From: a virus
Length of the DNA: 64,000 nucleotides
Direction: 5' to 3' (one strand)
Virus record (IMG/VR): IMGVR_UViG_3300020442_000007
Span: 32,001 to 96,000 of that record
Position numbers and translations under genes: made by a program. Under the pieces are notes generated by a model, which had not been told where the DNA came from, did no database searches, and saw only the letters and a program-made list of their open reading frames with translations. Positions 34,526 to 59,547 of the stretch are shown here, piece after piece (the first letter of the stretch is position 1; each line of letters begins with the position of its first letter).

Positions 34526-34554
34526 TTGACAATATAAGTAATTCATAGTATAAT
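34526..34554 (+). promoter_or_regulatory. sigma70 promoter (perfect consensus), probably leaderless transcript
   Basis: TTGACA-17-TATAAT, ATG 6 nt after -10, no RBS. Confidence 0.88.
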
Positions 34555-34560
34555 TAAACT

Positions 34561-35208
34561 ATGAAAACTAATCCCATTATAGTAGTAAACGCCCTTATGG
34601 GTTCTAAAGGACATCAGATTGCAAGACTGATAGCTAGTTGTTCTAATGTGCGATGGTATGATCATCATTGGAATGGTGCCAATCCTTGGGAACCTTGTAG
34701 TCATATCTTAAATCATGAATATAGCAAATATCATTTTGATAGAAGATTTAGTGATAACTCAACTATACCTCCTGTACTAGATTTTGCAGAACGTAGCAAT
34801 CATGAAGCACAAAAAATTCCATATGATATATTAGGCAAAGATGAAAAATTGATTTATGTTACACATGGAGATTTGGGCGAATCACGTGATTTCTTTAATG
34901 GCAAACATTTGGTAGTTTTTGATAAAGATATAAAAAGATTTTTTGAAACATCTTGGAAATACAAAGTGGGAAAAACAAGAACTCTTATAAGTGAACTATA
35001 TACTGTAGCAGAAGCAAAAGCTATGCTAAAAGGCGTCTTAGACAGCTATACAACGCATCTAAGCGGTGATGACTTTGCTATACATAGTGTAGAGGACCTT
35101 CTTAATATAGACATGTTTAAAATGCTTTGTAGCAAGTTTAATTTGAATTTTGACGAGAACGCATATAATAAAGTATGTAAATTTATAGATGAAAATAGAA
35201 ATAATTAA
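34561..35208 (+). CDS. sulfotransferase-like P-loop protein
   Basis: IIVVNALMGSKGHQIARLI, degenerate 5'-PSB-type loop. Confidence 0.45.
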   Translation: MKTNPIIVVNALMGSKGHQIARLIASCSNVRWYDHHWNGANPWEPCSHILNHEYSKYHFDRRFSDNSTIPPVLDFAERSNHEAQKIPYDILGKDEKLIYVTHGDLGESRDFFNGKHLVVFDKDIKRFFETSWKYKVGKTRTLISELYTVAEAKAMLKGVLDSYTTHLSGDDFAIHSVEDLLNIDMFKMLCSKFNLNFDENAYNKVCKFIDENRNN

Positions 35209-35740
35209 TGATAACCTAAAACCAAAATTGAGATCCTTTTGCCAAAAAGCAGAAGCACTAGGGTATAGTAATAATGCTAGTCTTGATGCAATGAAATTTG
35301 ATTGGTGCCAAGAAATTGGTAAATGGCTATGTGCAATAGAAAATGATGAAATAATTGCAGTAGCAGGATGCCATCCCCTTCCAGAAGTTTCAAAAAATGC
35401 TTGGAGAATAATGTTCAGAGGTTGCGAGCTACCCAAAAAAGATAATTTTAAAGGATTAGGCAAAGGAGATTGGAATAGTATTACACAACGTGAAATGATT
35501 CCATATTTCATTAATTACTGTCCTACAAAGGAAATTTACATAACTACTAATATAGACAACGAACATTCTAATGGCAAGGCTAGCCGTAACCATAGATTAA
35601 TGGGGTTACTAGCCAAACAAGGAATACTTGATTGGCACTCTAATATTACATTATACTATACTGAACAAACTGTTTGGAAACTTAATATAGAGGAATATAC
35701 AAGACGCAGGAATTTGTTAGGAGGAAAATATGTGGGTTAA
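35189..35740 (+). CDS. GNAT-like acetyltransferase
   Basis: IENDEIIAVAGCH..WRIMFRG.ELP...GLG. Confidence 0.55.
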   Translation: MKIEIINDNLKPKLRSFCQKAEALGYSNNASLDAMKFDWCQEIGKWLCAIENDEIIAVAGCHPLPEVSKNAWRIMFRGCELPKKDNFKGLGKGDWNSITQREMIPYFINYCPTKEIYITTNIDNEHSNGKASRNHRLMGLLAKQGILDWHSNITLYYTEQTVWKLNIEEYTRRRNLLGGKYVG

Positions 35741-35987
35741 TTGGAAACATTTAAATGAAGCGAAAACAAAAGCAGGAAGACCAGATGCTGGTTATTTTTG
35801 GCACTTTAAACTTGCAATTAACGAATTCTTTTTCTTGCTTTTTGTATGCATAGGTAGTTTGATACATGCTTTCTTTCCGTGGGTGCTTGATTTTAAATTG
35901 TTAGAATGGCGCATAAACAGGTTAAAAGAATTAAAGAAAAAATTACCAGATGATCCACAACTTAAAAAGGTGAAGTTTTATGACTAA
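35730..35987 (+). CDS. small DUF6356-like protein
   Basis: HL.E...YF.H...IHAFFPW; paralogue of 48378..48623. Confidence 0.55.
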   Translation: MWVNWKHLNEAKTKAGRPDAGYFWHFKLAINEFFFLLFVCIGSLIHAFFPWVLDFKLLEWRINRLKELKKKLPDDPQLKKVKFYD

Positions 35988-36816
35988 TGTTTTAGATTTA
36001 ATTGCATATAAAAATGGAGAATATAAACCATTAGGACAAATAGGTCCAACAATTTTAGATTTTGGATTTATTCATTGCGATGCTACATATGATGTGATGC
36101 CAGTATATGACGGAAAAGCATTTTGTTATGATAGACATTTGCAGAGATTTAAAAATAGTGCTGAACGATACGGACTTACACTTCCAGACGTTGATCCTTT
36201 AGAAATAATAAAAGAATTAGCAAAACGCAATCCTATTGAAAATGCATTTGTTTGGTTTTTGATATGGCGTGGTTATCCACCTAGTGGAAATCCAAGAGAC
36301 TTAGAAAATTGTCCTGTAAATTTTGCAATGTATATAAAACCAAGTTATCCTATAGCAAGTACGCCTCAAGTGAAATTATTTTTAGATAGAGATACAAAAC
36401 GTGTAAATGATGATTATTATGGACAAACATATAAAAACATGGCTTGGATAGAACTTACAATGAGTCAACGTAACAGGCCAAATAATTATGATACAACTGT
36501 TTTAGTTGACACAAACGGTTTTATAACCGAAGGTCCTGGATTTAATGTTGGCATTGTTAAAGATAAAATTATAATGACATCTGATAAAAATGTACTAAAA
36601 GGTATAACAATGAGTGTCGTTGAAGACATTGCCAACGAAAACGGTTCTACTTTCAAACGCTTACCTATAAGTGCAGAATTTTTTGAATCTGCTGATGAAG
36701 TTTTTATTACAAGCTCAAGTGGAGGTGTAACGGCTACTGATAAAACAGGTGTGGTCACAGATTTTTTGATTGCACAATATGAGAAGAAAAAAACTGAGTA
36801 TGCAACAGAGTTATGA
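35980..36816 (+). CDS. PLP-dependent class IV aminotransferase, (R)-amine transaminase-like
   Basis: DFGFIHCDATYDV, HLQRF..SA, YKNMAW (catalytic Lys), EGPGFN, LKGIT, ADEVFITSSSGG. Confidence 0.88.
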   Translation: MTNVLDLIAYKNGEYKPLGQIGPTILDFGFIHCDATYDVMPVYDGKAFCYDRHLQRFKNSAERYGLTLPDVDPLEIIKELAKRNPIENAFVWFLIWRGYPPSGNPRDLENCPVNFAMYIKPSYPIASTPQVKLFLDRDTKRVNDDYYGQTYKNMAWIELTMSQRNRPNNYDTTVLVDTNGFITEGPGFNVGIVKDKIIMTSDKNVLKGITMSVVEDIANENGSTFKRLPISAEFFESADEVFITSSSGGVTATDKTGVVTDFLIAQYEKKKTEYATEL

Positions 36817-37550
36817 CAGACTTCAAACAAATATTAAAAGAAGGTTGCACTATATCAAGTAGTGGAACCACTGGCACGCCTAAACAAATTTTTAGATCTC
36901 CAAAAAATTTAGAAGCATGTAATGCTGTTGCTATCAAGGATCAGCATATCACATCAAAGAGCAAAATATTTACTTGCACAAGAATGACTCATGCTGGAGG
37001 GTTATTACTGCAAAGTTTACCTGCATATACATTAGGATGTGATATTCACATTACAAAATTTAATCCTTTTAGTTTTATTAAAGATTTTGAAAAATACACA
37101 CACACCTTTTTACCTCCTGCTATGTGTGAAGCCATAATAAAAACTAAAGGATTTTCAAACGCTAATTTTAACGGAAAAATAATAGCAATGGGCAGTGATA
37201 TAATACCTTGGGATCATATTCGTAAATTTGTAAGCAAAGGCGCAACAGTTATTGCTAATTGGGGTATGAGTGAAATAGGTCCATGTGCAATAAACACAAC
37301 ATTTGAGACACTAAAGTATGTTGACAGGCATGCAGAATGGGCACCTAATGGATTACCTATTATGGGTGAAAATTTAAATTGTTGCTATCAAATTGATTAT
37401 AAAACAGACGAACTACTTGTTAAAGGAGATATCTGTATTCATGATGATTGGTTTGCAACAGGCGATAAAGTGCATTTACATTATAAAATGCCGCAACTAG
37501 GTTATTTTCCTATATTATATTATAAAGCAAGATTAGCACACGCCAGTTGA
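36813..37550 (+). CDS. minimal AMP-binding (ANL) adenylate-forming enzyme
   Basis: SSSGTTGTPK, HAGG, WGMSEIGP, WFATGD; lacks C-terminal subdomain. Confidence 0.8.
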   Translation: MTDFKQILKEGCTISSSGTTGTPKQIFRSPKNLEACNAVAIKDQHITSKSKIFTCTRMTHAGGLLLQSLPAYTLGCDIHITKFNPFSFIKDFEKYTHTFLPPAMCEAIIKTKGFSNANFNGKIIAMGSDIIPWDHIRKFVSKGATVIANWGMSEIGPCAINTTFETLKYVDRHAEWAPNGLPIMGENLNCCYQIDYKTDELLVKGDICIHDDWFATGDKVHLHYKMPQLGYFPILYYKARLAHAS

Positions 37551-38264
37551 AATTCTTTCAACTATGTGATTTAAGGCTGGATAATAATCATCATCTTTTG
37601 GGTCATGCTTACTTAACACATCAGCAAGTTTATCATCTCTTTTACAAAATTCATTAAAACTTATCGTTTTATTTGGTAAACCTAACCCTTCGAAAATTTC
37701 TTGTACTGTATTATTTCTTATAGTAGGAAAAAAATTTGTGATATTTTGATTTTCAATAGCAATTTGTTTTTTCATACCTACATCATCTTTATACCAAAAA
37801 TAATGAGGATATGATATATCCCAACCTCCACAGATATGCCACCATTCAAAACATTCTTCATTAGTTCTTTGAACACCTATAAACTTTGCATCTGGAAACA
37901 TATTTTTTAGATAGTCAAGATGATAAGCAAACCAATGACTTTTGATTATTTTTTTACCATGATTCCAGTCTGTGTAAGGTTTTTTAAAATCCTCAACAAT
38001 TTGTTCTTTGCTAAGTGTATCAAGTATATCAAACTGTTTTCCAAACTCATGATCAGGACCCCAATACGCACCTCTATGCCAACCCCTGGTAACTAATTTA
38101 CCTGTATCAGGATTGATAGTCTCATGATTGTAAACTCTATCAGGGGTTTCATCAGAAATATTTATATCTATGTTTGATGTTATCATACGTAGTATTCCGC
38201 TCCATCTACTGCCTGGAGCACCTGTCGCTAAAATTAAATCTTTACCTGTGTAATCTTCATACAT
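37533..38264 (-). CDS. sulfotransferase-like P-loop protein
   Basis: ILATGAPGSRWS, IIKSHWF, FPDAKFI.V.R; paralogue of 40024..40731. Confidence 0.6.
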   Translation of the reverse strand: MYEDYTGKDLILATGAPGSRWSGILRMITSNIDINISDETPDRVYNHETINPDTGKLVTRGWHRGAYWGPDHEFGKQFDILDTLSKEQIVEDFKKPYTDWNHGKKIIKSHWFAYHLDYLKNMFPDAKFIGVQRTNEECFEWWHICGGWDISYPHYFWYKDDVGMKKQIAIENQNITNFFPTIRNNTVQEIFEGLGLPNKTISFNEFCKRDDKLADVLSKHDPKDDDYYPALNHIVERISTGVC

Positions 38265-39051
38265 TTTTTATTCCTTCTAAAATCATTTCTGCCATAATTT
38301 TATGTGATTCAACTCCAGGATGAAACCCATCTCTTGCTAAATCTACTACAGTTTCTTTTGCTTCAAACGGCACCTTGGATATATTATGTAGACTTGGCAC
38401 AATAGACTTCCACGCCCTTCTTTCACAATATGCAAGAATTAGTCTTGAATTCGGAAACAAACCTTTTAAAAAAAAGTCAAATAATTTTAAACAGTCAACA
38501 TCTGAATTAGTAAAATGTTTTTTGTATCCTTCTTCTTGTTCTAACTTTCTTATTTTATATATTTCACGTAAAGCCCAACCATAATTTTGAAAAAACCTTG
38601 TATCATTTAAAACAACATAATCAGGATTAAAATTTTTAAATTCTATTAATGGATCTATAATATCAGTTAATGAATCAGCTGAGCTAAAATTTATATAAGA
38701 TGCATTTAATTTTTCTGCCACTAAATATGGAAAACTTTCTTCTACATTCACTCCGGTACCTAGACATAAACTTCCACCGGCAAATATAATCTTAACATCA
38801 GCGTCATAATTTGGTTCAGGTCCTCGGAGACCTAAGCTATTCCATCTATATTCTACATGTTTATTTACAGCATCTTTTTGAGCTATATGTGCCGTAAATA
38901 GATCTCTCCCTCTGCCCCCAACCCAAGGTTTACTATTTTCCTCATTATCTTTTCCGTTCCAAAGATCTATTGTGCAAGGTTCGTTAAACATTTGTTTACG
39001 TATCTTAGGTTGTTGTCCTTTTGTTTTTCTTGGGGTAATAGGTTCAGACAT
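38257..39051 (-). CDS. SGNH/GDSL hydrolase-like protein
   Basis: NSLGLRG, FAGGSLCLG.GV, ARDGFHPG..SH (DxxH). Confidence 0.65.
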   Translation of the reverse strand: MSEPITPRKTKGQQPKIRKQMFNEPCTIDLWNGKDNEENSKPWVGGRGRDLFTAHIAQKDAVNKHVEYRWNSLGLRGPEPNYDADVKIIFAGGSLCLGTGVNVEESFPYLVAEKLNASYINFSSADSLTDIIDPLIEFKNFNPDYVVLNDTRFFQNYGWALREIYKIRKLEQEEGYKKHFTNSDVDCLKLFDFFLKGLFPNSRLILAYCERRAWKSIVPSLHNISKVPFEAKETVVDLARDGFHPGVESHKIMAEMILEGIKNV

Positions 39052-40015
39052 TAATTATATGCTCTTTAGATCCGTTGTTCATTAAATTAGTAAACTTTTC
39101 ATTTATAAATCCAGTAGCTTGTAAAGTTATTCTTGGTGTGTAGCCCATATTAGAAGCAGCATGCGGCATATTACACCAATCATACACAACACATTCACCT
39201 GCATCATAACCTTGATAATATGTATTTCCGAACTGCCATACATGTCCATAATCCCAAGGTGTTAAAGCTATCAGTATCCTACGTAACATAAGTGGATTTT
39301 TATCTGCTCCTGCGGCAATCCATTTTTCTCTCCATTCTGGTCTAGCATATCTCATCTGTTGATCAATATGGAAAGGTGTTACTTCTCCTAGACGTTGTAT
39401 ATGCACTCTTGATTGATGTACATCATACATACCTACTGCTTCTAACATTCTAAAAAAAACAGCAGAATCAGGATGAGTATCTCTTCTTTCATTATGAGCA
39501 ATTTGATGATGATACATGCAAGATACATCATCTTTGCCTGATGCACGTTTAATGTCCATCATTTCACCTTCATGTAAATCTTTATCTTGCTGACTAGAAT
39601 TACGTGGTCTATAGTTTCCTATAGTATGTTCTTTACATTTTCTTAAAGCTCTTTGTACACCAGCTTCCCAGTCACCTTTAAATTTACACATAACTGTAAA
39701 AGTTTTTTCTTGTGGATCACCTTTTGGATCAAAATGCCAAGTAGACCGCAATTTATTATGATACCATCTACTAGGAATTCCGTCAACCGTGTAAACATTC
39801 ATGTTAGATTTTTTATGACGTTGTAGTTGCTCCTCTGAATACATATCATCTTGGTAATTGCTATCATTAATGTTCACACCTTCTTCAAGTTGTGGAATTT
39901 GATCCGGTACAAGATCTTTGACACGATCACCGGAATAATAATTAACATTATCTTTATCACCTTCAATTGATTTTTTTAAAATTTTGTTTGCATCATCTGC
40001 GTAATCTTTTTCCAT
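39044..40015 (-). CDS. Fe(II)/2OG oxygenase (Asp/Asn beta-hydroxylase-like fold)
   Basis: HIQRLG..PFHIDQ, RILIAL..W..G, DWCNMPHAASN..PRITLQ. Confidence 0.7.
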   Translation of the reverse strand: MEKDYADDANKILKKSIEGDKDNVNYYSGDRVKDLVPDQIPQLEEGVNINDSNYQDDMYSEEQLQRHKKSNMNVYTVDGIPSRWYHNKLRSTWHFDPKGDPQEKTFTVMCKFKGDWEAGVQRALRKCKEHTIGNYRPRNSSQQDKDLHEGEMMDIKRASGKDDVSCMYHHQIAHNERRDTHPDSAVFFRMLEAVGMYDVHQSRVHIQRLGEVTPFHIDQQMRYARPEWREKWIAAGADKNPLMLRRILIALTPWDYGHVWQFGNTYYQGYDAGECVVYDWCNMPHAASNMGYTPRITLQATGFINEKFTNLMNNGSKEHIINV

Positions 40016-40023
40016 ATTTGCTC

Positions 40024-40731
40024 CTAAAAATTGTATTCACACACGTTTACATCAAGCACATATCTTCCATTAAAATTATTAACTTCTTTCGGTTGGCTTT
40101 TCTCTATAGAAGAAATATAAAAATCTAACCAATCATATTCTTCTTTTGATTCTAACCCCCAGCGTTCTTTAAAATAATACCTATCACAAACATTAACTCT
40201 TAATTTGTTTTCTCCTACCCAATTATTCGCTGCGGCTACTTCTTCAAATATTTTTTCTTTGAGTAGGTCATAATTTTTATAATATGTATGATAATCTGGA
40301 TAATCAATAGACTCAAATCCTCCAGCACCTTTCCAGCCTCTGAAATTTTTTATTTCAGTTCTAAGCACAATCATTATTTTTGCTAATGGAAAAGTTTTTC
40401 TTATGTAATCTAATTGTAAGGAAAAATGATGACATTTAATAATTCTATAAGTATCCCAAGTTTTGTCAGCATATGGTCCGTCTATTTCTTGAATTATTTC
40501 TTCTTTAGTCAAAGTATCTAGTTTATCAAATTTTTGTCCGTATTCTTGTCCAGGACCCCAGTACGCTCCTAAGTGCTGTACTGGAGATCTTGTATGTGTA
40601 TACACTCTGTCATCTCTGTGATCAGATATGTTAATTGGCATAATAGTATTTTTTGATATTACGTTAGATACTGCACTCCATTTACTACCTGGGGCTCCAG
40701 TAAAGAATATTAGTTTACTTTCATCATACAT
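40024..40731 (-). CDS. sulfotransferase-like P-loop protein
   Basis: IFFTGAPGSKWS, GAYWGP, IIKCHHF, FPLAKIMIVLR. Confidence 0.6.
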   Translation of the reverse strand: MYDESKLIFFTGAPGSKWSAVSNVISKNTIMPINISDHRDDRVYTHTRSPVQHLGAYWGPGQEYGQKFDKLDTLTKEEIIQEIDGPYADKTWDTYRIIKCHHFSLQLDYIRKTFPLAKIMIVLRTEIKNFRGWKGAGGFESIDYPDYHTYYKNYDLLKEKIFEEVAAANNWVGENKLRVNVCDRYYFKERWGLESKEEYDWLDFYISSIEKSQPKEVNNFNGRYVLDVNVCEYNF

Positions 40732-40754
40732 TAATTTTTTTCCTATGTAAATAT

Positions 40755-41495
40755 TTATTTTGGCTTGTAAAACTCAAAATACAATCTGTCACCGTTATCT
40801 TTTTTAAACTTTTCTAATTCAAGATTGTGTTCTTTTGCTAGTTCATATGCTACTTCAAACGACCAAGGAAAGATATCTACAAAAGGTCCTTTTGGCCATA
40901 AATGCCCAGGATTAGCACGAAAATACATTCTACCTCCAGGCATTAATATTTCTACAAGTTTTGCAAATCTTGTATTAATATCACCTCTATCACCGAAGTT
41001 TAAACTACCGAACACTATGATATGATCATAGCTCTCTGGCTCAACAGCAAATTCTAATATATCAACCATATAGTCTGCACTATTATTATATGGATCTATA
41101 CCAATTAGATTTTTAATTCTATTTTTAAATGGATGATATCCACAACCAAAGTCTAACACCGCTTTTGGATCTGTATTGTTTATTGTATCTACTAATGCCC
41201 ATCCGCTGTATTGATATATTTCAGTTTTAGGTTGCCAAATCTCCCCAAAAAACCTATGCATATATCTTGAATCAAGATCAGATACTAATTCTTTCACAGT
41301 AACATCTAAAGTTTCTATATCAAGTTGTAACTTAGATGACACATTGTCTTTAAACTTACGTAACCTAGCTGGTGACCAAGGTAACGAACCGATATTTGTA
41401 TCGATTGTAATCTGATCATTAATATTGTTATACTTAGGTAAATTGAAGGAGTTTTTTAAATTTTCGTCGATTAGACTAAAAATTCGAGTGTTCAT
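40755..41495 (-). CDS. class I SAM methyltransferase with N-terminal ACP-like segment
   Basis: VLDFGCG, IGIDP, YDHIIVFGSLNF, LMPGG. Confidence 0.8.
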   Translation of the reverse strand: MNTRIFSLIDENLKNSFNLPKYNNINDQITIDTNIGSLPWSPARLRKFKDNVSSKLQLDIETLDVTVKELVSDLDSRYMHRFFGEIWQPKTEIYQYSGWALVDTINNTDPKAVLDFGCGYHPFKNRIKNLIGIDPYNNSADYMVDILEFAVEPESYDHIIVFGSLNFGDRGDINTRFAKLVEILMPGGRMYFRANPGHLWPKGPFVDIFPWSFEVAYELAKEHNLELEKFKKDNGDRLYFEFYKPK

Positions 41496-41668
41496 AAAAA
41501 AAATCTCCTTTTTGATAAATAAATGTATGCAATAATAAAAAAAGATTCACTTTTAAAAATTTTTTTATCCGCATCATATAATTACTTATGTTATATGTAT
41601 TATTTAAGGATCAACTCTGAAACTTAAAAATTTAATAATGAAGTATAAACTAAAGGAGATATAACATT

Positions 41669-42724: not shown

Positions 42725-42735
42725 AGGATTAACCT

Positions 42736-44244
42736 ATGGACTATGTTATCTGGGCATTAATTGGCACCATGTATGGAATGCTAGTTGGTATTATACCTAT
42801 TGCAGGTGTAACTACCGCCCTGATAACTGTCTTTAGCATGGGAGCATACTTTATGGCTGACCCTTATTTGGGGTTAGTCTTTCTTACTGCAATAGTAGCA
42901 AGTTGTGCAAGTGCAGATAGTTATACAAGTATTCTTACAGGCATACCAGGAGCAAGTACAACTGCGGCCTGTGTTATAGATGGTTATCCAATGGCGAAAA
43001 AAGGCCAAGCCTCAAGAGCAATGGGCATTGCTATTGCTGACTCTACTTTTAACGGAGTTGTATTTGCAGCACTGACATTCTTTTTACTTCCTTATTATGG
43101 GAAGATTATAGTATTATTTGGACGTCCAGAGTTTCTGGGCTTCATGACAATGGCACTAGCCTGTGTAGGCTTTGTGGCAAGTAAAAACGTATTTTTAAGT
43201 ATATGTGCAATCATATTCGGACTAGCAGTAGGTATGGTTGGCGAAGATGTTGTAAGTAATCCTAGACTAACATTTGGTTGGGAATATTTACAAAATGGAA
43301 TAGGAATGGTAGTTTTACTATCAGGCCTGTTTGGAGTACCAGAATTATTAGATGGATTTAGAAGAAAATTAAAATCCGCAGCACCACCAATAAATGGAAG
43401 TTATTGGACAGGTCTTTTCCAAGGCTTCCGTGATGTAAAAACACACTGGCGTGATATGATACGTGGTGGGTTGATTGGTTTCGTTACTGGTTTATTACCA
43501 GGTGTAGGAGGCGCAGTAGGTGACTTCTTAGCATACGGTGCCACAAAGGCTGCACATAAAGAAAAAGACCAAGAAGTTCCTTTTGGTGAAGGTAACCCTG
43601 TAGGATTATTAGGGTGTGAAGGAGCAAACAATGCACAAAAGGTGTCTAGTATGATTCCTGCATGTTTGTTTGGAATACCAGCTGCGCCTTTTGCCGCAAT
43701 GGTAATGGCAATATGTATGTATTTCGGTATGGAGATTGGTACACCAAGTCTATTAGATGATATACAGTTTACAAATAGTTTAGCATTTGGTTATATTTTT
43801 GGGACTATTGGTGTTGCATTGTTAAGTATATTTTTATACAAGTATATACTTAAAATATTAGAAGTGCCTTTTTGGATTTACGCAACTTTTATTTTAGCAG
43901 TAATTGTTTATGCTAATATGCAATACACAGGTGGTTGGGAAGATTTAGCTTTACTTGCTATCTTAAGTGCTATAGGAGTCTTATGTAAAATGTGGAACAT
44001 TAGTAGACCAGCAATTCTAGTTGCATACGTTGTAGCTTTTAAGATAGATGAATACTTTTGGGGAACATTGCAGATTTATGGTTATAAACAATGGAAACCA
44101 GGATTAAGTTCAATGTCTGACTTTAGGTGGTTTGAATTATTTAACATATATAACCATCCTATATTCCTTATATGTATTGTTGTTGCATTAGGAATATTTA
44201 TAAACAGTTTAGTTAGAAAAGATAAAGGACTTGATTACGTATGA
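42736..44244 (+). CDS. tctA: tripartite tricarboxylate transporter large permease
   Basis: About 12 TM; IPGASTTAACVIDGYPMAKKG, GLLPGVGG..FLAY, EGANNA..SMIP..FGIP. Confidence 0.92.
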   Translation: MDYVIWALIGTMYGMLVGIIPIAGVTTALITVFSMGAYFMADPYLGLVFLTAIVASCASADSYTSILTGIPGASTTAACVIDGYPMAKKGQASRAMGIAIADSTFNGVVFAALTFFLLPYYGKIIVLFGRPEFLGFMTMALACVGFVASKNVFLSICAIIFGLAVGMVGEDVVSNPRLTFGWEYLQNGIGMVVLLSGLFGVPELLDGFRRKLKSAAPPINGSYWTGLFQGFRDVKTHWRDMIRGGLIGFVTGLLPGVGGAVGDFLAYGATKAAHKEKDQEVPFGEGNPVGLLGCEGANNAQKVSSMIPACLFGIPAAPFAAMVMAICMYFGMEIGTPSLLDDIQFTNSLAFGYIFGTIGVALLSIFLYKYILKILEVPFWIYATFILAVIVYANMQYTGGWEDLALLAILSAIGVLCKMWNISRPAILVAYVVAFKIDEYFWGTLQIYGYKQWKPGLSSMSDFRWFELFNIYNHPIFLICIVVALGIFINSLVRKDKGLDYV

Positions 44245-44987
44245 TGCACAAAACAAATTGGACTAAAACTTTAGAACCTGCAGACAATTATAAAAGTAAT
44301 TGGGATTGGACTGTAGCACACAGTGAATATCATTTTGATAATAATATTCAAGACAAGGAAGGCGAATGGGTTAAAGTTTTAGGCCGATTTGATAATCCTG
44401 AGTTATGGAAAGCAGATAGAGATAGATTAGTTAAAAATGCGACTAAAGCTATAAATTGGGAAACAAGAAAATTCTTTGGACATAAAGAAGATGCATCTCC
44501 AATGTTGAAACAAGAAGAATATGATATTACACAAGGAGGGGGTGATCCTAAAAAACTTATGCTTACAAATATGAAAGATGAGTTAGAGGATTATCCAATG
44601 CTTGTAAAAATGAAAGAACACTTTGGCGTAGTAGGTGGTAAGGACGAATTAAAATATCGTGCCCATGTTCAACTTACAGGTCAAATGTTTAATTTACACA
44701 TTGACAAACTTTGGGATAGATGCATAGAAGATCCTGAACAAGTATGTCGTATTACATTTTTCTTAGATGATTGGCAACCAGGACAGTTCTATATGTATGG
44801 TAATTTTATCTATGAAAGATGGAAAGCCGGAGAAGCTCATATATTTGATTGGCCTAATGTGCCACACGCAACCGCTAACGCAAGTAATTTTGCAAGACCC
44901 TGCATACAGATTACAGGCTTAAAATCAGATAAAACTAGGGAAATTATTGCTAATGGATCGCGTGATACAGTATGGACACTAAAGTAA
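44241..44987 (+). CDS. Fe(II)/2OG oxygenase (Asp/Asn beta-hydroxylase-like fold)
   Basis: HVQLTGQMFNLHIDK, DWPNVPHATAN..R..IQITG. Confidence 0.7.
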   Translation: MMHKTNWTKTLEPADNYKSNWDWTVAHSEYHFDNNIQDKEGEWVKVLGRFDNPELWKADRDRLVKNATKAINWETRKFFGHKEDASPMLKQEEYDITQGGGDPKKLMLTNMKDELEDYPMLVKMKEHFGVVGGKDELKYRAHVQLTGQMFNLHIDKLWDRCIEDPEQVCRITFFLDDWQPGQFYMYGNFIYERWKAGEAHIFDWPNVPHATANASNFARPCIQITGLKSDKTREIIANGSRDTVWTLK

Positions 44988-45172
44988 GAAGTCTCGTAAA
45001 GACAGTATCATGGAGATTAACTGGTACACTTTGCACATTTTTAATTAGTTACGCAATATTACGTGACATTAGTATAAGCGGTTCTATTGCAATTATACAA
45101 CTTACTGCTAACACATTTATATTTTATATACACGAACGTATATGGAATATAATAAAATGGGGTAAACTTTGA
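44972..45172 (+). CDS. DUF2061 small membrane protein
   Basis: RSLVKTVSWR...FYIHERIW..IKWG. Confidence 0.8.
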   Translation: MDTKVRSLVKTVSWRLTGTLCTFLISYAILRDISISGSIAIIQLTANTFIFYIHERIWNIIKWGKL

Positions 45173-45810
45173 AACCTTTACTTACTATAATGACTGGCCC
45201 GCAAGGAGCCGGTAATCACTTATTCAGTAAAGCACTAGGACAAAATAAAAATATATTTGTATGGCCTGCATTACAAGAAAAGTATTGGGAAGGTCATGAT
45301 TTAGAACCTTTTGCAGAATGCTGGAAAGATCCTTTAAAACTAAATGATTTTGACTGGAAACAAAGTCAGTATTTCATCACAAGTATCAGTTGCCCATATT
45401 TTGATGATGGTGTAGAAACTATTCCAGCATATGATAATTTTATAGAAGTAGCAAGAAAGTTTTGTAGAATTCAATTTCTCATAATAGGGAGAGATAGTAA
45501 TATTTTAAAATTACAACAAGAACGTGTAAGAGAAAAACACACAACACCGTTTTTTATGAAACAGTTAGATAGTATAATACTTGGCAATAAAACAATATTT
45601 GCTAGTCAAGAGTTATTATACTTGTACAAGATAAGATATTTACAATCGTTAGAAAAACAACTAGGATTGTTACCAAATGAAGTAACATTAGATGATACTA
45701 AACTACTAGAAATATTATCTAAAGATGCGAATAAGAAATACATATCACAAGCAGAATCAACATTAGATAAAACAATTCAATTAGCAAGTAGCAGGAAAGG
45801 CGCAGTATGA
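45169..45810 (+). CDS. sulfotransferase-like P-loop protein
   Basis: LTIMTGPQGAGNHLFSKAL, IIGRD.NIL..QQ.R. Confidence 0.55.
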   Translation: MKPLLTIMTGPQGAGNHLFSKALGQNKNIFVWPALQEKYWEGHDLEPFAECWKDPLKLNDFDWKQSQYFITSISCPYFDDGVETIPAYDNFIEVARKFCRIQFLIIGRDSNILKLQQERVREKHTTPFFMKQLDSIILGNKTIFASQELLYLYKIRYLQSLEKQLGLLPNEVTLDDTKLLEILSKDANKKYISQAESTLDKTIQLASSRKGAV

Positions 45811-46232
45811 AAATATTAATATTTGGCTTGCCTGGTAGTGGTAAAACCACGCTGGCAAAACCTTTTGCAGAATTAATTGGTGCAATTCATATAAATGCAG
45901 ATGCTGTAAGAGACAAATATAAAGACTGGGATTTTAGTTTAGAAGGCAGAGTCAGACAAGCACAAAGAATGCGTTATCTAGCGGATGGTGTTGTTAGTGC
46001 AGGAAAAGTTGCAGTTGCTGACTTTATTTGTCCTACAGAAAGAGCAAGACAAGAATTTGATGCAGATTATCAAGTTTGGATGGATACTATTAAGGAAGGT
46101 AGATACGAAGACACAAATAAAATGTTTGAAAAACCTTCTAGCGTTAACTATCATGTTTCAAAATGGTTTGAGGATACACATGCACAATTAATGGAGGTAG
46201 TGAAAAATTACATGGAGAAAAATAATGTTTAA
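45807..46232 (+). CDS. cysC: adenylyl-sulfate (APS) kinase-like
   Basis: IFGLPGSGKTTLA, NADAVR, DFSLEGR, DFICP, FEKP. Confidence 0.75.
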   Translation: MKILIFGLPGSGKTTLAKPFAELIGAIHINADAVRDKYKDWDFSLEGRVRQAQRMRYLADGVVSAGKVAVADFICPTERARQEFDADYQVWMDTIKEGRYEDTNKMFEKPSSVNYHVSKWFEDTHAQLMEVVKNYMEKNNV

Positions 46233-46635
46233 CGTTTTTAAGCCTACAACACAAATGTTAGGACGTTGGCAACCTTGGCACAAAGGACACACTGAATTAT
46301 TTAAACGTGCTTTAGCTGAAACAGGACAAGTATGTATTATGATCAGAACTGTGCCGCAAGACACAGATGCATCAGGCGGACGTACAATGACGCAGGATGA
46401 CAATCCATTTATTGTGGCTGATGTAGAAGATAATATAAAAAAGGAACTTGCTAAAGAGGGTTTTGAATATTATAGGGAATACAATATTATGATTGTTCCG
46501 AATATTGTAGATATTAGTTATGGTCGTGGGGTAGGATATACCTTTACAGAGCATGACTTAGGAAAAGAGATACATAGTATTAGTGCTACAGAATTACGTG
46601 CCAAGATGCGTAAAGAAGGTAAGCTGCAGACTTAA
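46225..46635 (+). CDS. HxGH nucleotidyltransferase (cytidyltransferase/ATP-sulfurylase-like)
   Basis: GRWQPWHKGH, YGRGVGY, ISATELR. Confidence 0.8.
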   Translation: MFNVFKPTTQMLGRWQPWHKGHTELFKRALAETGQVCIMIRTVPQDTDASGGRTMTQDDNPFIVADVEDNIKKELAKEGFEYYREYNIMIVPNIVDISYGRGVGYTFTEHDLGKEIHSISATELRAKMRKEGKLQT

Positions 46636-46656
46636 ATACTAGAAAGGTAGATATGT

Positions 46657-47373
46657 ATGGCATTTAGATTTGATAAAGATAAGATGAAATATTTGACTAA
46701 TCCTGATGACTATAAAAGTAATTGGGAATGGACAAAAAGTAATAGTAATTACCATTTTGATAAAAACACTATCGATGGTGTCAGTGAAACATTTAGAGTG
46801 TGTGGAACTTTTCATGGTGATTGGGAAGAAGAATTAAAACAAGTTATAAAAGATAGCAAACCAGTTACTTGGGCAACAAGAGGTAAAAAAGGCGAACGTA
46901 AAGACAAGTTTATAGAACAAGAAGAATATGATCTTACATCTGCAGGAGCAAGTGCTGACTTAGAAGTTTCTAACTTTAATAGAAAATGTGAGAAGTATAC
47001 CAAGATAAATGAAATAGCAGAATATTTTAAACTTGAAAATTTTCAAAAAAGAATACATGTACAAACTACAGGGCAAGTTTGGAATCTACACATAGACAAA
47101 CTTTATCAATTTAATCCTGAGGATCCATCTAAAGTAGTAAGAATAACAATCATGCTGAATGACTGGGAACCAGGACAATTTTATATGTATGGTAATCGAA
47201 TGTATGAAAGATGGAAAGCAGGTGAAATACATATATTTGATTGGCCTAATGTTCCTCATTCTACTGCAAATACAAGTTATGTACCAAGAGTAAGTTTACA
47301 ACTTACAGGTGTTAAAACAGAAGACACTGACAGAATACTTAACGAACGAGATCACTATTATTCTGTGGAATGA
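46657..47373 (+). CDS. Fe(II)/2OG oxygenase (Asp/Asn beta-hydroxylase-like fold)
   Basis: HVQTTGQVWNLHIDK, DWPNVPHSTAN..PRVSLQ; close paralogue of 44241..44987. Confidence 0.7.
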   Translation: MAFRFDKDKMKYLTNPDDYKSNWEWTKSNSNYHFDKNTIDGVSETFRVCGTFHGDWEEELKQVIKDSKPVTWATRGKKGERKDKFIEQEEYDLTSAGASADLEVSNFNRKCEKYTKINEIAEYFKLENFQKRIHVQTTGQVWNLHIDKLYQFNPEDPSKVVRITIMLNDWEPGQFYMYGNRMYERWKAGEIHIFDWPNVPHSTANTSYVPRVSLQLTGVKTEDTDRILNERDHYYSVE

Positions 47374-47378
47374 TTTGA

Positions 47379-47732
47379 ATGATAGACATACTAGTTGCAA
47401 ATATAATCTATGTATCTTATAGATTGCTTGTAACTGCTCATATAGTAAAATTTTTATACAAGTACATTCCTTACGGCTTTGCAGTTTTATTAGCCGCACA
47501 AATAAGTTTTTTATACGATGGGGGTGTATTTGCTTATCTATTTCAGGCAAAAGAATTACCAGCACTAATGGATTTTGTTCAAGCTAACGTATTATATACT
47601 TTTCGAGTTGGTGTGGCATGGTGGATTATTAAGATACTATGGGATCAATTGAGTAATTATTATTTGGCTGTGTTTATGGGTGCTCAGCTTACATTCATAG
47701 TAGACTATTTTATTTTTGAGGGAGTGTTTTAG
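47379..47732 (+). CDS. small membrane protein (about 4 TM)
   Basis: Hydrophobic, two-fold internal repeat (Y..AV..AQ.SF.YD / YY.AV..AQ.TF.VD). Confidence 0.7.
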   Translation: MIDILVANIIYVSYRLLVTAHIVKFLYKYIPYGFAVLLAAQISFLYDGGVFAYLFQAKELPALMDFVQANVLYTFRVGVAWWIIKILWDQLSNYYLAVFMGAQLTFIVDYFIFEGVF

Positions 47733-47743
47733 AGGTTAAATAC

Positions 47744-48385
47744 ATGCAAGGAACTAGTTTTATGGATATACAAGATTTTACAGAGTTTGATCAAAGTAGA
47801 TTAAAATTTTTCCAATTGCCTGAAAATTTATCTAGGTTTAGTGCAAAAAGAAACAATGCAAAAATCTCTAAAGAACACGATATACGTGAAATATTTCCTC
47901 TTGATGCAAATATAGTTGATGCTGGTTGTGGAGTAAATCCTTACAAAAAGTATTTTCCTAATTTGATAGGATTTGATTTTGTTGATTATGGTAATCAAGA
48001 TTATGTATGCAAAATTTTAGATGCTCCAATCGAACTAGAAAGTCAAGACGGTGTCTTGTGTTTAGGAGTTTTACATGAGTGTCCGGATGATTATCATCTA
48101 CCTAACATAGAAAAAATGTTATCTTGGTTACGGCCAGGCGGGCTACTTATAATGAGACATAAAAAAGAAACAGAAGCTGATTATGAAGAAAGAAGAAAAC
48201 AACACGGATTTTGGATAGGAATAGGATCTTGGCCACGTAGTAGGATTGATGAATTTACAAATAATTTAAATGTTAATTTAGAATGGATTGTTGAACATTC
48301 AACAAAAAGAACATTTAAACATAATGGTCAAGATTTAAAAAAGACATTTGATGGTCATATATGGTGTTGGAGGAAATATGTATAA
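47744..48385 (+). CDS. class I SAM methyltransferase
   Basis: IVDAGCG, IGFDF, DGVLCLGVLH, LRPGG. Confidence 0.82.
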   Translation: MQGTSFMDIQDFTEFDQSRLKFFQLPENLSRFSAKRNNAKISKEHDIREIFPLDANIVDAGCGVNPYKKYFPNLIGFDFVDYGNQDYVCKILDAPIELESQDGVLCLGVLHECPDDYHLPNIEKMLSWLRPGGLLIMRHKKETEADYEERRKQHGFWIGIGSWPRSRIDEFTNNLNVNLEWIVEHSTKRTFKHNGQDLKKTFDGHIWCWRKYV

Positions 48386-48623
48386 AAAAATTAAAGAACA
48401 TTTAGAAGAAACAGAATGGGGATATTGGAAACACTTAACGCATAGTGTTCACCAAAGTAATAAACTGATAGCCTGTGCAATTAAATCTTACATACATGGA
48501 ATTTTTCCATGTTGGTATAAAGCTGATGGGCCAATAACTATTTTTAAAATGTATCATCAAATAAAACGTATTCATCATGTAGCAAAATTAGAACGTGAAA
48601 TGAAAGACAAGGGTGAAATATAA
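48378..48623 (+). CDS. small DUF6356-like protein
   Basis: GGAGG RBS, start MYKKIKEH; HL.E..GY.KH...IHGIFP. Confidence 0.6.
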   Translation: MYKKIKEHLEETEWGYWKHLTHSVHQSNKLIACAIKSYIHGIFPCWYKADGPITIFKMYHQIKRIHHVAKLEREMKDKGEI

Positions 48624-49207
48624 TGGATGTGATGAGCTTACATAGTATACTTTGTTCATATGGAGACGTGGTAGAATTAGATTATAAATTTTCAGAAAAA
48701 ACAATTACAGAACTAAAACAAATAAAGGATTGGTTACCAGGGCCTAATGGAAAAACTGCAATCAATCTAACTGGTCCTATAGAAGATTTAGGTTTAGACA
48801 CTCCTGCCGAAATTAAGCATGCAAGAAATCAACCATATAATGATAACTTATTAAAATGTCCTAGTATTATAAAGTTTTTTGATAAATGGACAGAACTTGC
48901 AAGGTGTAGGGTAGCAACTATGGACAAAGGTAGTTTTTTTAGATTACACAGAGATGCATTTAGACTAAACGATCAATTTCGTATTTTTATTCCTTTAAAT
49001 AAAACTACAGATGATGAATGGATGTTTATATATGACGGAAAAATACAAAGATTTAAAGAAGGCGTTCCATACGTACTAAACACAAGAAAAACACACGGCA
49101 GTTTCGCAATGGCAGACGATATATATCACATTCTAATGAGTTTATACATTAACGAAAATAATATTAAACAAATAGCAAAAATGCTACCTAATTGTAAAGA
49201 ACACTAA
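48623..49207 (+). CDS. Fe(II)/2OG oxygenase (Asp/Asn beta-hydroxylase-like)
   Basis: GSFFRLHRD, RIFIPL, LNTRKTHGS. Confidence 0.7.
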   Translation: MDVMSLHSILCSYGDVVELDYKFSEKTITELKQIKDWLPGPNGKTAINLTGPIEDLGLDTPAEIKHARNQPYNDNLLKCPSIIKFFDKWTELARCRVATMDKGSFFRLHRDAFRLNDQFRIFIPLNKTTDDEWMFIYDGKIQRFKEGVPYVLNTRKTHGSFAMADDIYHILMSLYINENNIKQIAKMLPNCKEH

Positions 49208-49211
49208 TTAT

Positions 49212-49219
49212 GATAAATA
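49212..49219 (+). promoter_or_regulatory. T4-late-like promoter box (GATAAATA)
   Basis: Intergenic, upstream of GGAG RBS and 49248. Confidence 0.45.
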
Positions 49220-49247
49220 AACATAGTAAGTCTAACGGAGAAAAAAT

Positions 49248-49976
49248 ATGAATTATTACTTAATTGTAGGCTTTGGATTTGGTGAAATACGAACTATTGC
49301 AACTAAATTAACTGAAAAGCTATCTGCAAAATATGGCGAAAAAACTGTGCTTAGAGAACAATGGGGCGTACTAAGAGCATGGCGACATAATGATGAGCAA
49401 AATGGTATTAATAATTTTATTATGCCAGCAGGTTTAAGTGGTTTAGCTAGATTTGGTGATAGATTAGCCAAAAATATAACTGATGATACACAACACATTG
49501 TATTACATGGTCCAGGTGTTCTTTTAAATTACGAAAAATTATCTAATATTTTAGCAAGTAATAAAACTGATAGTGTAGATCATGTTAAATTAACCGTAGA
49601 TTCAACCGTTACAACTTATCTAGTCAAGACTACAGAAAACTCAGCAACAATGGCAAATCGTTTACAAACTCAATGGGATACGACTGTTGGTGATATGGTA
49701 CATAGTGGTACAGGAATTGTTAATCCTACAGCTGAACAAATACAAGCATCTAAAGATGCATACTACAAATGGTGTACAAACTATGCTAATACAGCCGCTA
49801 CAATGTTTGGAGATTATGATGAAGAAGCATGGCAACCATGGGGTGGTTGGCAAGATGATTTATCGCCTACTTCAGTTGGTGTAGGAATAACAGACGTCAA
49901 CACTTTTACTAGAAAAGACGGAACAATTTCTAAATTTACACCACATAGTCATCAAATATATTGGACTACACCTTAA
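49248..49976 (+). CDS. hypothetical protein
   Basis: GGAG RBS; last gene before the strand switch. Confidence 0.7.
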   Translation: MNYYLIVGFGFGEIRTIATKLTEKLSAKYGEKTVLREQWGVLRAWRHNDEQNGINNFIMPAGLSGLARFGDRLAKNITDDTQHIVLHGPGVLLNYEKLSNILASNKTDSVDHVKLTVDSTVTTYLVKTTENSATMANRLQTQWDTTVGDMVHSGTGIVNPTAEQIQASKDAYYKWCTNYANTAATMFGDYDEEAWQPWGGWQDDLSPTSVGVGITDVNTFTRKDGTISKFTPHSHQIYWTTP

Positions 49977-51631: not shown

Positions 51632-51636
51632 TCTTA

Positions 51637-51665
51637 ATTATATACTTTCTTATGCAAAATGTCAA
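51637..51665 (-). promoter_or_regulatory. sigma70 promoter (perfect consensus), probably leaderless transcript
   Basis: Minus-strand TTGACA-17-TATAAT, ATG 5 nt after -10. Confidence 0.85.
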
Positions 51666-59546: not shown

Positions 59547-59547
59547 A

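Follow-up and report, generated by a model that had tools for sequence, protein, structure and literature searches.

The question raised by this locus is whether a marine phage carries, in 15 kb, a single coherent pathway that imports a carboxylate and builds a sulfated, hydroxylated and aminated product, as the first-pass annotation had proposed. The window analyzed is a 64,000-nucleotide stretch (positions 32,001 to 96,000) of the IMG/VR record IMGVR_UViG_3300020442_000007. Its source contig, of 165 kb and estimated by CheckV to be 47% complete, belongs to an uncultured, marine, T4-like phage that is probably jumbo-sized. The island consists of 23 tightly packed ORFs lying exactly where they had been placed, in the convergent/divergent operons described before: the convergent junctions lie at 37533-37550 and 49976/49978 and the divergent one at 41495-41669, and start and stop codons overlap by 4-20 bp at many gene junctions. 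An Mtd_N tail-fibre gene adjoins the island, which sits in a hypervariable arm. Gene by gene, profile, structure and homology evidence indicated that the annotated gene content is largely real.

A predicted importer is encoded on the plus strand. TctA (42736..44244), the large membrane subunit of a tripartite tricarboxylate transporter (TTT), matched its Pfam profile over its full length (7.2e-86), so this half of the annotated TctC/TctA pair is firm. Support is weaker for the TctC-like periplasmic binding protein (41669..42724), which has a signal peptide and aligned by tblastn with annotated TTT substrate-binding proteins (E 6e-13, 26-30% identity over 80-92% of the length) but did not match PF03401 even at E<=10. 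TctC relatives form >1668 metagenomic clusters. TctA relatives are encoded by 470 IMG/VR stretches; among 185,579 species genomes only 6 contigs carry one, all from metagenome-assembled genomes and all with viral-type cassettes, and GenBank phage records contained no close homologue. As judged from these surveys, the TctA-TctC importer appears to be essentially virus-restricted. A Pfam search for TctB found none with the importer. TM117 (47379..47732, plus strand), a 4-helix membrane protein by its hydrophobic pattern, did not match the TctB profile either; it is present in 5/17 TctA representative loci (8-kb flanks), spread over deep lineages, and is a possible TctB substitute. Given the failure of TctC to match PF03401 and the missing TctB, transport competence of the predicted importer is putative.

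To analyze the gene neighborhood of the importer, we used approximately 150 IMG/VR loci for synteny and 17 representative viral TctA loci (<90% TctA identity, at least 3 kb of flank) for linkage. Within 5 kb of TctA, we found TctC in 17/17 loci, an MTa-type methyltransferase in 16/17, a sulfotransferase-like protein in 15/17 and a 2OGa/b/c-type oxygenase in 14/17, counts that do not represent phylogenetically independent contrasts. As controls, we took 30 loci from phages of a similar kind that lack TctA (477 kb of ORFs); there, these families turned up 0, 1 and 1 times. The core linkage was kept at 42-48% TctA identity, with the TctA-TctC order inverted. These counts support the view that the transporter and the sulfation-type, hydroxylation and methylation enzymes would form a unit, and to this extent the proposed pathway holds. 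This unit, module B (40755-47732), has a conserved core of TctC, TctA, methyltransferase, sulfotransferase-like protein and 2OG oxygenase, and as optional members an APS-kinase/nucleotidyltransferase pair, a DUF2061 protein and the 4-TM protein.

The Fe/2OG oxygenase 2OGb (44241..44987, plus strand) starts 4 bp before the end of TctA. In its predicted model (pLDDT 91.8), the best 50 VIA matches were all Fe/2OG oxygenases (Z 12.2-8.5); the top matches in both Foldseek and VIA were proline/prolyl hydroxylases (Z 12.2), and near structures included the protein prolyl hydroxylases PHD, EF-Tu P4H and viral collagen P4H. Two paralogues, 2OGc (46657..47373, plus strand; 45% identical to 2OGb, with the same invariant residues) and 2OGa (39044..40015, minus strand; with a long N-terminal extension), align with it, and HxD..H..R is invariant in the three. 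The best PDB sequence match of their profile was the 2OG-dependent alkylsulfatase AtsK, at an E of only 0.28. 2OGd (48623..49207, plus strand), from a second family with invariant HxD..H, matched by PDB profile a 2OG beta-hydroxylase (7e-5) and Pro cis-4-hydroxylase (1e-3), its best match being a hydroxylase of a nucleoside-antibiotic pathway; its homologue in locus L158 gave a weak Asp_Arg_Hydrox match. Paralogy and structure matches for 2OGa/b/c, and profile and motif for 2OGd, thus bear out the annotation of four Fe/2OG oxygenases. The core methyltransferase-like protein MTa (40755..41495, minus strand) carries an invariant DxGCG motif, and its weak PDB matches were class I SAM methyltransferases without exception. 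MTb (47744..48385, plus strand) is its paralogue (hhalign probability 98.4%, E 6e-15). Two homologous, class I-like methyltransferases were therefore recovered as annotated, but not the ACP-like head ascribed to one of them, since Pfam gave no ACP match in the head of MTa.

From TctA through 2OGb, DUF2061, PL2 and the APS-kinase-like protein to the HxGH protein, gene ends overlap by 4-16 bp. The DUF2061 small membrane protein (44972..45172, plus strand) was confirmed by Pfam (3.4e-19). In the predicted model of PL2 (45169..45810, plus strand; pLDDT 84), the top 13 VIA rows were all sulfotransferases (Z 12.7-9.1), with tyrosylprotein sulfotransferases at Z 11.8-11.1, and an atlas shape search led to a viral cluster with 9886 members. 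The loop GPQGSGNH, which resembles a PSB loop, is atypical and contains neither Lys nor Arg. The adjacent P-loop kinase (45807..46232, plus strand; 141 aa, with a short C-terminus) is APS-kinase-like, in line with the earlier claim: it matched PF01583 above the Pfam cut-off (33.8 bits, N-terminal positions 2-92 only) and the APS kinase 2yvu by PDB profile (3e-8), and scored 28 bits with NCBIfam apsK, under the 139-bit cut-off. The neighboring gene, translationally coupled to that of the kinase, encodes a minimal HxGH nucleotidyltransferase (46225..46635, plus strand) that by its matches looks closest to a NadM-type NMNAT (PDB 2qjt and 1f9a, approximately 7e-4; NCBIfam PRK01153, 1e-6, below cut-off; sulfate adenylyltransferase only at E 0.066). 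With these NadM-type best matches, and with PF01747 absent, an identity as ATP sulfurylase is not supported. Because the APS-kinase/HxGH pair accompanies only 3-4/17 TctA representatives, a PAPS supply of the phage's own is dispensable.

At lower coordinates, on the minus strand, lies module C, consisting of ST_a (37533..38264), an SGNH/GDSL-like protein (38257..39051), 2OGa and ST_b (40024..40731). ST_a matched Sulfotransfer_3 below threshold (6e-4), as did 6/11 members of the family that it forms with its paralogue ST_b; the ST_a family alignment shows invariant GAPGSxWS, K-x-H and an Arg, and the ESM look-alikes of ST_b are viral sulfotransferase clusters. Of four proteins annotated as sulfotransferase-like, PL2 thus has the fold, ST_a and ST_b have weak support, and PL1 drops out (see below). 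The SGNH assignment is likewise weak (NCBIfam GDSL_LA_2490, E 2e-3), with GGS and DxxH motifs visible in the protein. Between relatives ST_a is 70% identical versus 94-100% for its neighbors, a mosaic divergence, and the block as a whole is sporadic across loci. At the other end of the island, DUF6356 b (48348..48623, plus strand; Pfam 1.2e-10) has an annotated TTG start with a 38-bp overlap, and its translation probably begins at an ATG further inside. The plus-strand run is closed by u242 (49248..49976), which is conserved only in L001 and L023 and for which family searches gave no significant match. Module C and the tail from 2OGc to u242 are accessory paralogues.

Module A (34526-37550, plus strand) has its own promoter, a perfect sigma-70 consensus (TTGACA-N17-TATAAT, 34526..34554) in the 38-bp gap upstream of PL1. 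Ten such perfect sites occur in the 165-kb contig, versus 0-2 in 20 first-order Markov simulations, and consensus sigma-70 promoters suggest expression by the host polymerase, probably pre-late. The first gene, PL1 (34561..35208, 215 aa), has no assigned function: Pfam, PDB and hhalign comparisons gave no signal, sulfotransferase or other, its family comprises 64 unnamed metagenomic clusters, and in relatives it is linked to GNAT/ANL. The annotated GNAT (35189..35740) found weak support in a PDB profile match to the GNAT 3t9y (E 1e-3) but none in Pfam. It is followed by the DUF6356-like small membrane protein a (35730..35987; Pfam 2e-4, sub-threshold), so that both annotated DUF6356-like proteins are retained, and by a class IV (fold IV) PLP aminotransferase (35980..36816) that Aminotran_4 confirmed (1.2e-34), with equal NCBIfam DAAT and BCAT scores, all under equivalog cut-offs. 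The annotated ANL adenylating enzyme (36813..37550) has an AMP-binding core (Pfam 7.5e-16) but is not complete: it covers positions 170-380 of 384 of the AMP-binding profile (NCBIfam 176-381 of 531), with motifs A3, A5 and A7 only. Relatives keep a similar length (223-251 aa), and the alignments indicate that the gene encodes a conserved 245-aa core fragment without a C-terminal domain.

The reading in which all of the approximately 23 genes between 34561 and 49976 build one product was set against the alternative of genes that assort independently without any conserved core, and the outcome was mixed. The full 15-kb layout is repeated in a single 88%-identical contig only; a lineage further away, L023, largely keeps it but is missing the genes for the aminotransferase, DUF2061, APSK and HxGH. 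Module A is found at 30 loci that have no TctA but next to just 2/17 TctA representatives, and these AT4 loci without TctA contain GNAT (29/30), DUF6356 (30/30) and ANL (22/30). The coding strand also changes three times, and this, together with the separate promoter, divides the region. On the other side, module B adjoins module A in 7/37 AT4 loci, including L158, and in the L158/L037 lineage module A, a methyltransferase and TctA-TctC form a single 8-kb block; some cross-talk between the two modules is possible. Because the full layout rarely recurs and the modules are split across relatives, the island is not one coherent 15-kb pathway. Gene order largely refutes the single-pathway reading, which we consider very unlikely. 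Synteny did reveal a conserved core, with module A assorting alone and module C sporadic. Altogether, the stretch is mosaic, pieced together from three or more operon modules, each with its own inheritance.

From the observed gene families, folds, linkage statistics and promoters, we infer an import-and-tailor function for the core of this mosaic: module B would be a phage importer linked to enzymes that tailor the imported organic acid or a derivative, a reading to which we assign a probability of roughly 0.5. During infection, the phage would install its own binding-protein-dependent organic-acid importer, made of the secreted TctC-like protein and TctA without TctB and genetically tied to the methyltransferase, sulfotransferase-fold proteins and 2OG oxygenase; both direction and substrate are predicted. 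The linked enzymes may then hydroxylate, methylate and sulfate the imported compound or a derivative, giving a putative tailored product, and the kinase/nucleotidyltransferase pair may produce or replenish a 3'-phospho-adenylyl donor, with PAPS as the presumed one. Module A, as a separate sigma-70-driven unit, would make or use an amine or amino-acid-like intermediate. Several features weigh against this explanation, namely the PL2 loop devoid of Lys/Arg, the ST family below Pfam thresholds and the NMNAT-like HxGH protein; the tail-fibre neighborhood and the many paralogues fit macromolecule modification equally well.

Such modification, of virion proteins (tail fibres) or host-envelope polymers, is an alternative that we regard as unlikely but worth weighing. 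TctC/TctA would import 2-oxoglutarate or a precursor, the APS-kinase/nucleotidyltransferase pair would supply PAPS, and MtnN-like genes of relatives would clear SAH and 5'-deoxyadenosine. The invariable proximity of the Mtd_N fibre gene, the protein prolyl hydroxylases near 2OGb, the tyrosylprotein sulfotransferases matched by PL2, the PNP_UDP_1 (MtnN-like) and HIT genes that relatives add beside radical SAM genes, and a paralogue multiplicity and mosaic divergence resembling arms-race surfaces are all consistent with it. However, the link of TctA to the methyltransferase and sulfotransferase is at least as strong as that to the oxygenase, the promoters suggest pre-late expression, and the enzymes are minimal (200-250 aa), without extra recognition domains. 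The importer could instead be a scavenging device that brings the infected cell a scarce compound, such as an organosulfur one; its neighbors would then be catabolic (oxygenolytic sulfite/sulfate release, sulfate-group handling) or independent auxiliary metabolic genes (AMGs) in a permissive region. The separate listing of viral tctA and 2OG oxygenases as AMGs of SUP05 viruses (PMC4164917), the marginal AtsK match, the sulfur-rich theme (APS-kinase-like protein, sulfotransferase folds) and the highly plastic gene content point this way, but the four families stay non-randomly linked in deeply diverged and reshuffled loci, which speaks against a chance collection, structure searches put proline/prolyl hydroxylases first, and the methyltransferase has no obvious catabolic role; we find this reading quite improbable. 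Least credible is a hypermodification of phage DNA bases or the nucleotide pool. Relatives with a longer module A carry IMPDH/GMP-reductase-like, B12-radical SAM and radical SAM genes, and the best PDB match of 2OGd comes from nucleoside-antibiotic synthesis, but the IMPDH-like and radical SAM genes are absent from the window's own module A, DNA-binding, glycosylase-like and TET/JBP-like features were not found, and DNA modification has no place for an importer built on a periplasmic binding protein.

Compared with known systems, the island shares with bacterial biosynthetic gene clusters its Fe/2OG hydroxylases, SAM methyltransferases, class IV aminotransferase and ANL ligase, its operon packing and the way tailoring genes come and go as modules. 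Unlike them, it is viral and lies beside a tail fibre, its ANL protein is a core fragment, and a scaffold enzyme (NRPS, PKS, terpene, RiPP precursor) was not identified in it. Systems that make or use PAPS (CysC; TPST, NDST, the olefin synthase ST domain) resemble it in the APS-kinase-like N-terminal core, the PL2 sulfotransferase fold and the adjacent, coupled kinase and nucleotidyltransferase, but the phage region has no ATP sulfurylase and an NMNAT-like nucleotidyltransferase instead, its kinase lacks the usual C-terminal part, and in PL2 the 5'-phosphosulfate loop is missing its Lys/Arg. Cyanophage PstS is a phage auxiliary metabolic gene for uptake. As with such genes, host-type uptake and 2OG oxygenase genes lie here in a variable region. 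In SUP05 viruses, tctA and a 2OG-Fe(II) oxygenase were listed as separate putative AMGs of unknown role (PMC4164917); those are isolated domain matches, whereas here a multi-gene cassette shows conserved linkage. Like TctCBA of Salmonella and the Bug/TTT family, the phage importer has a full-length TctA with a secreted binding protein encoded directly upstream, but it lacks TctB, its binding protein has diverged beyond the reach of PF03401, and its family is essentially virus-restricted and hard-linked to tailoring enzymes. By these predicted functions, an uncultured large marine phage brings its own nutrient importer, which in hundreds of its relatives stays linked to methylating, sulfating-type and hydroxylating enzymes.

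The source contig is a single viral sequence of 165,479 bp with a CheckV completeness of 47%, from which a whole genome of approximately 350 kb follows. Its DNA polymerase is of the T4 type (phrog_262), and its best matches among GenBank phages are jumbo phages with 43% to 50% identity. G+C content is approximately 32%, and the GC skew is followed by the strand switches across the island region. The island (34561-49976) starts 38 bp after the end of a 464-aa tail-fiber-like gene with an Mtd_N domain and consists of 23 ORFs arranged nearly without gaps, with frequent start/stop overlaps of 4 to 20 bp. Its end coincides with the onset of a long minus-strand run (49978-60477) encoding three unknown proteins of 213, 343, and 387 aa and, after them, four radical SAM proteins, of which one has a SPASM domain and one is 752 aa long; in many relatives, module A, the aminotransferase module described below, is accompanied by homologues of the genes for the 213- and 343-aa proteins. 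Outside the island and just upstream of the tail-fiber gene, a fifth HxD..H protein of 204 aa is encoded at 32410-33024 (weak match to 2OG-FeII_Oxy_3, E 0.13).

The first-pass annotation had presented this island as one coherent 15-kb pathway. For synteny, we collected IMG/VR loci around TctA (33) and the aminotransferase (38), added 80 of the 470 confirmed stretches that encode divergent TctA relatives, and scored all of these by tblastn and with HMMs built from family alignments. Neighbors were counted within 5 kb of TctA in 17 representatives sharing less than 90% TctA identity and having at least 3 kb on each side. In module B (40755-47732), TctC was present in 17/17 representatives, a methyltransferase of the MTa type in 16/17, a sulfotransferase-like gene (ST_a/ST_b or PL2 type) in 15/17, and an oxygenase of the 2OGa/b/c type in 14/17. 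Four other genes of this module are optional: the HxGH gene, which encodes a minimal nucleotidyltransferase, was found at 4 of the 17 loci, the adjacent APS-kinase-like gene at 3, TM117, which encodes a 4-TM protein, at 4 (5/17 when flanks of 8 kb are considered), and DUF2061 at 1 or more. The linkage of module B was kept at 42% to 48% TctA identity, despite a TctA-TctC gene order and rearranged neighbors. As a control, we used 30 aminotransferase-centered loci without TctA from similar phages (477 kb of ORFs), in which MTa and PL2 homologues were not found and ST_a/b and 2OGa/b/c homologues were found once each. These same 30 loci contained parts of module A (34526-37550), namely DUF6356 (30), the GNAT-like gene (29), and the short ANL gene (22, several loci being cut by contig ends), and a 2OGd-like oxygenase was present in 22 of them. 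Only 2 of the 17 TctA representatives had parts of module A nearby, and of 37 aminotransferase loci, 7 contained TctA. The genes of module C, which are ST_a, SGNH, 2OGa, and ST_b, were confined to a few contigs.

The importer, methyltransferase, sulfotransferase-fold, and 2OG oxygenase genes are tightly linked and translationally coupled, and the aminotransferase module is independent. The gene cluster is real and its module B is linked, but modules A, B, and C differ in their distribution, so the island is not co-inherited as a single biosynthetic cluster and the proposal of one pathway was only partly right. The object of interest is the virus-specific TctC/TctA-methyltransferase-sulfotransferase-oxygenase core, and for long "biosynthetic islands" located beside phage tail fibers, synteny should be used to separate the modules before anyone postulates one pathway.

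The entire layout was found in one further collinear contig (88% nucleotide identity), and with losses in locus L023, which has no aminotransferase, DUF2061, kinase, or HxGH gene. Most island proteins are 94% to 100% identical between the window and the collinear contig; ST_a (37533-38264, against L001:1785-2519) is 70% identical, the product of u242, the last plus-strand gene, 80%, and the first radical SAM protein 79%, which suggests local replacement or fast evolution. In many relatives, a methyltransferase, a B12-radical SAM, a radical SAM, and an IMPDH/GMP-reductase-like gene are added between the aminotransferase and the ANL gene. A longer module A of this kind (L046:5277-13922) comprises GNAT, DUF6356, aminotransferase, two unknown genes, a SAM methyltransferase, a B12-binding radical SAM, a radical SAM, an IMPDH/GMP-reductase-like gene, and the short ANL gene, and hints at nucleotide-like chemistry in such relatives. 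In a 342-kb relative (L004:14224-16819), the kinase/HxGH pair is followed by PNP_UDP_1 (MtnN-like nucleosidase), HIT, and radical SAM genes. In a 359-kb contig (L161:1406-3483), at a distance of a few kb from TctC/TctA, DUF6356 adjoins a gene of the Trp_halogenase family and one for a hexapeptide-repeat transferase; it seems that DUF6356 occurs together with tailoring enzymes of various kinds. A lineage with module A adjacent to TctA-TctC carries a second, longer AMP-binding gene (387 aa, L158:8050-9213) after TctC and immediately before the fiber gene.

Perfect TTGACA-N17-TATAAT sites occur ten times in the 165-kb contig versus 0 to 2 times in simulations; in the window they are located at 15301, 17674, 22199, and 34526 on the plus strand and at 51665 and 63123 on the minus strand. 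The 17-nt spacing holds throughout and most sites read TTGACAA. Their positions include the 38-bp gap before PL1 (the 215-aa protein heading module A), the region upstream of the minus-strand gene u343, and the beginning of the operon with the radical SAM genes. For module B, the best match (10/12) lies in the 173-bp divergent intergenic region, and ribosome-binding sites are strong. Generic promoter and terminator scans stayed at chance level overall, the enrichment being limited to perfect consensus sites. The T4 late box TATAAATA was rejected as an operon marker since it is depleted (3 sites versus 13.6 expected). This promoter pattern fits separate transcription of the modules by the host polymerase.

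Families and folds were established among the encoded proteins, with strong assignments for TctA, the class IV aminotransferase, DUF2061, one DUF6356 protein, the AMP-binding core, the 2OG oxygenases, the fold of PL2, and the methyltransferase-like pair MTa and MTb, and weaker ones for the TctC-like, GNAT-like, SGNH-like, and ST_a/ST_b proteins. TctA matches PF01970 over profile positions 2 to 422 of 423 (288.9 bits, E 7.2e-86). The TctC-like protein had no match to PF03401 at E ≤ 10 by hmmscan or six-frame search, and its profile had no significant match among PDB sequences. It does align by tblastn with plasmid-encoded proteins of Rhodobacterales that are annotated as TTT binding proteins (E 6e-13 to 1e-11, 26% to 30% identity over 80% to 92%), it carries a signal peptide, and its gene adjoins TctA in all 17 representatives. 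A search of the 165-kb contig for TctB (PF07331) with a limit of E ≤ 10 gave no match, and the 4-TM ORF at 47379-47732 (TM117) is a candidate TctB substitute only. The TctC-like gene (41669-42724) has a G+C content of 0.41 and a GC3 of 0.32, versus approximately 0.32 and 0.16 to 0.25 in its neighbors, and between contigs TctC and TctA are 85% to 95% conserved versus 40% to 88% for adjacent genes.

Of the four proteins that had been annotated as sulfotransferase-like, PL2 was the one modeled (pLDDT 84), and its predicted model has the sulfotransferase fold. The top 13 rows of an exhaustive VIA search with this model were all sulfotransferases (Z 12.7 to 9.1), with P-loop kinases at 9.1 or below; Foldseek alone was ambiguous, and an atlas shape search returned a 9,886-member viral cluster together with sulfotransferase-annotated clusters. 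ST_a scored 20.5 bits against the 27-bit gathering cut-off of Sulfotransfer_3, with 6 of 11 family members matching below threshold, and ESM look-alikes of ST_a and ST_b agree with this weak assignment. PL1 and PL2 had no Pfam sulfotransferase match, and the PL2, ST_a/b, and PL1 profiles retrieved nothing significant from PDB sequences. ST_a/b contain the loop GAPGS(K/R)WS and an invariant Arg124, and PL2 contains the loop GPQGSGNH, without Lys or Arg, and an invariant R108; in both cases the correspondence with the basic residue of the 5'-phosphosulfate-binding loop (PSB) and with the 3'-phosphate-binding Arg (PB) of PAPS-dependent sulfotransferases was judged by eye. Because no pair among PL1, PL2, and ST_a/b was significant by hhalign, the notion of four paralogous sulfotransferases in a single family was rejected; a sulfotransferase identity of PL1 found no support, and the ORF following ANL in relatives was rejected as a PL1 homologue. 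MTa and MTb are mutually homologous and class I methyltransferase-like, and the ACP-like head ascribed to MTa was not supported.

The predicted model of 2OGb (pLDDT 91.8) has a double-stranded beta-helix fold, the best 50 VIA rows all being Fe/2OG oxygenases (Z 12.2 to 8.5). Its structural neighbors include proline 3-hydroxylase (Z 12.2) and prolyl hydroxylases, and Foldseek relates it to proline cis-4-hydroxylase (2e-6). In the 2OGa/b/c paralogues, H153, D155, H209, and R219 (the HxD..H metal triad plus a basic residue for the C5 carboxylate of 2OG) are invariant or nearly so across 21 sequences; their profile found nothing significant among PDB sequences, the best being AtsK at E 0.28. 2OGd is a member of another oxygenase family, in which H109, D111, and H158 are invariant. 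The 141-aa APS-kinase-like protein exceeds the PF01583 cut-off (33.8 versus 21.1 bits) but covers positions 2 to 92 of 152 only; it scores 28 bits against the 138.7-bit cut-off of the NCBIfam apsK equivalog and matches PDB APS kinases at 3e-8 over residues 4 to 82. The HxGH protein does not qualify as an ATP sulfurylase: its best matches are NadM-type NMNATs, it scores 12 bits against sopT (E 0.066), and nothing in the contig matches PF01747. NadV (PF04095), searched for with an NAD-salvage reading of the kinase/HxGH pair in mind, was not found in this 47% complete contig. The aminotransferase scores 120.6 bits against PF01063 (cut-off 28.5) but misses every equivalog cut-off, DAAT and BCAT being tied at approximately 1e-23. 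The supposed ANL adenylating enzyme does have the AMP-binding core, but spans profile positions 170 to 380 of 384 alone and stops just past the TGD motif, thus lacking the first approximately 170 positions and the entire C-terminal domain (catalytic Lys, A10); in place of the complete ANL architecture, this short form is conserved in relatives.

The TctC-like family comprises more than 1,668 metagenomic clusters, all unnamed. A megablast search of GenBank phages with the island as query gave no match, and no close TctA was present in approximately 50,700 GenBank phage records, where tblastn yielded only bacterial-looking fragments of approximately 25% identity. An exact-pattern scan with the window TctA found none in 185,579 species genomes (one genome per species); an alignment-based scan of the same genomes found 6 contigs, all from metagenome-assembled genomes and all with viral-type cassettes. 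The genomes that contain these TctA/TctC loci (L151-L156) are assigned to six groups without close kinship, among them Legionellales, Omnitrophota, Ignavibacteriaceae, and Weeksellaceae; several of the loci include a linked methyltransferase or sulfotransferase-like gene, and all are probably viral contigs binned there in error. In the literature that could be searched, viral tctA is mentioned only as a domain match of unknown role (PMC4164917, PMC6359870), and searches on DUF2061, on DUF6356, and on TctA in connection with phages and sulfotransferases turned up no account of the cassette.

We tentatively propose, with a probability of roughly 0.3, that the core is a virus-restricted import-and-tailor cassette of large uncultured aquatic phages, in which a two-part, TctB-less TTT importer acts together with a methyltransferase, sulfotransferase-fold enzymes, an Fe/2OG hydroxylase, and sometimes its own synthesis of a PAPS-like donor by the APS-kinase-like and minimal NMNAT-like proteins, so that an imported organic acid would be sulfated, methylated, and hydroxylated to yield a metabolite in the course of infection. 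The phage would install a binding-protein-dependent organic-acid importer, and the linked enzymes would tailor the imported compound. Where present, the kinase/nucleotidyltransferase pair may build a 3'-phospho-adenylyl donor, much as APS kinase follows sulfate adenylylation or CoaE follows CoaD. The main rival, which we consider less likely, accounts for the same linked parts differently: the transporter and the kinase would supply co-substrates (2-oxoglutarate and PAPS), and the enzymes would modify macromolecules of the virion or envelope. Should the core function as a single unit, it would represent a widespread, undescribed route by which large phages rewire host small-molecule or sulfur metabolism, and it would also provide sulfotransferase-fold, 2OG oxygenase, and fold-IV aminotransferase enzymes of small size.

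We know of no characterized phage pathway of the import-and-tailor kind. Phage-encoded uptake systems are known chiefly for phosphate, whereas in hundreds of uncultured viral contigs three tailoring chemistries have a constant neighbor in a binding-protein-dependent importer, putatively for organic acids. Compared with the TTT transporter (TctABC), neither a PF03401-recognized TctC nor TctB was found for this importer in the contig, which encodes TctA and an adjacent secreted TTT-homologous binding protein.
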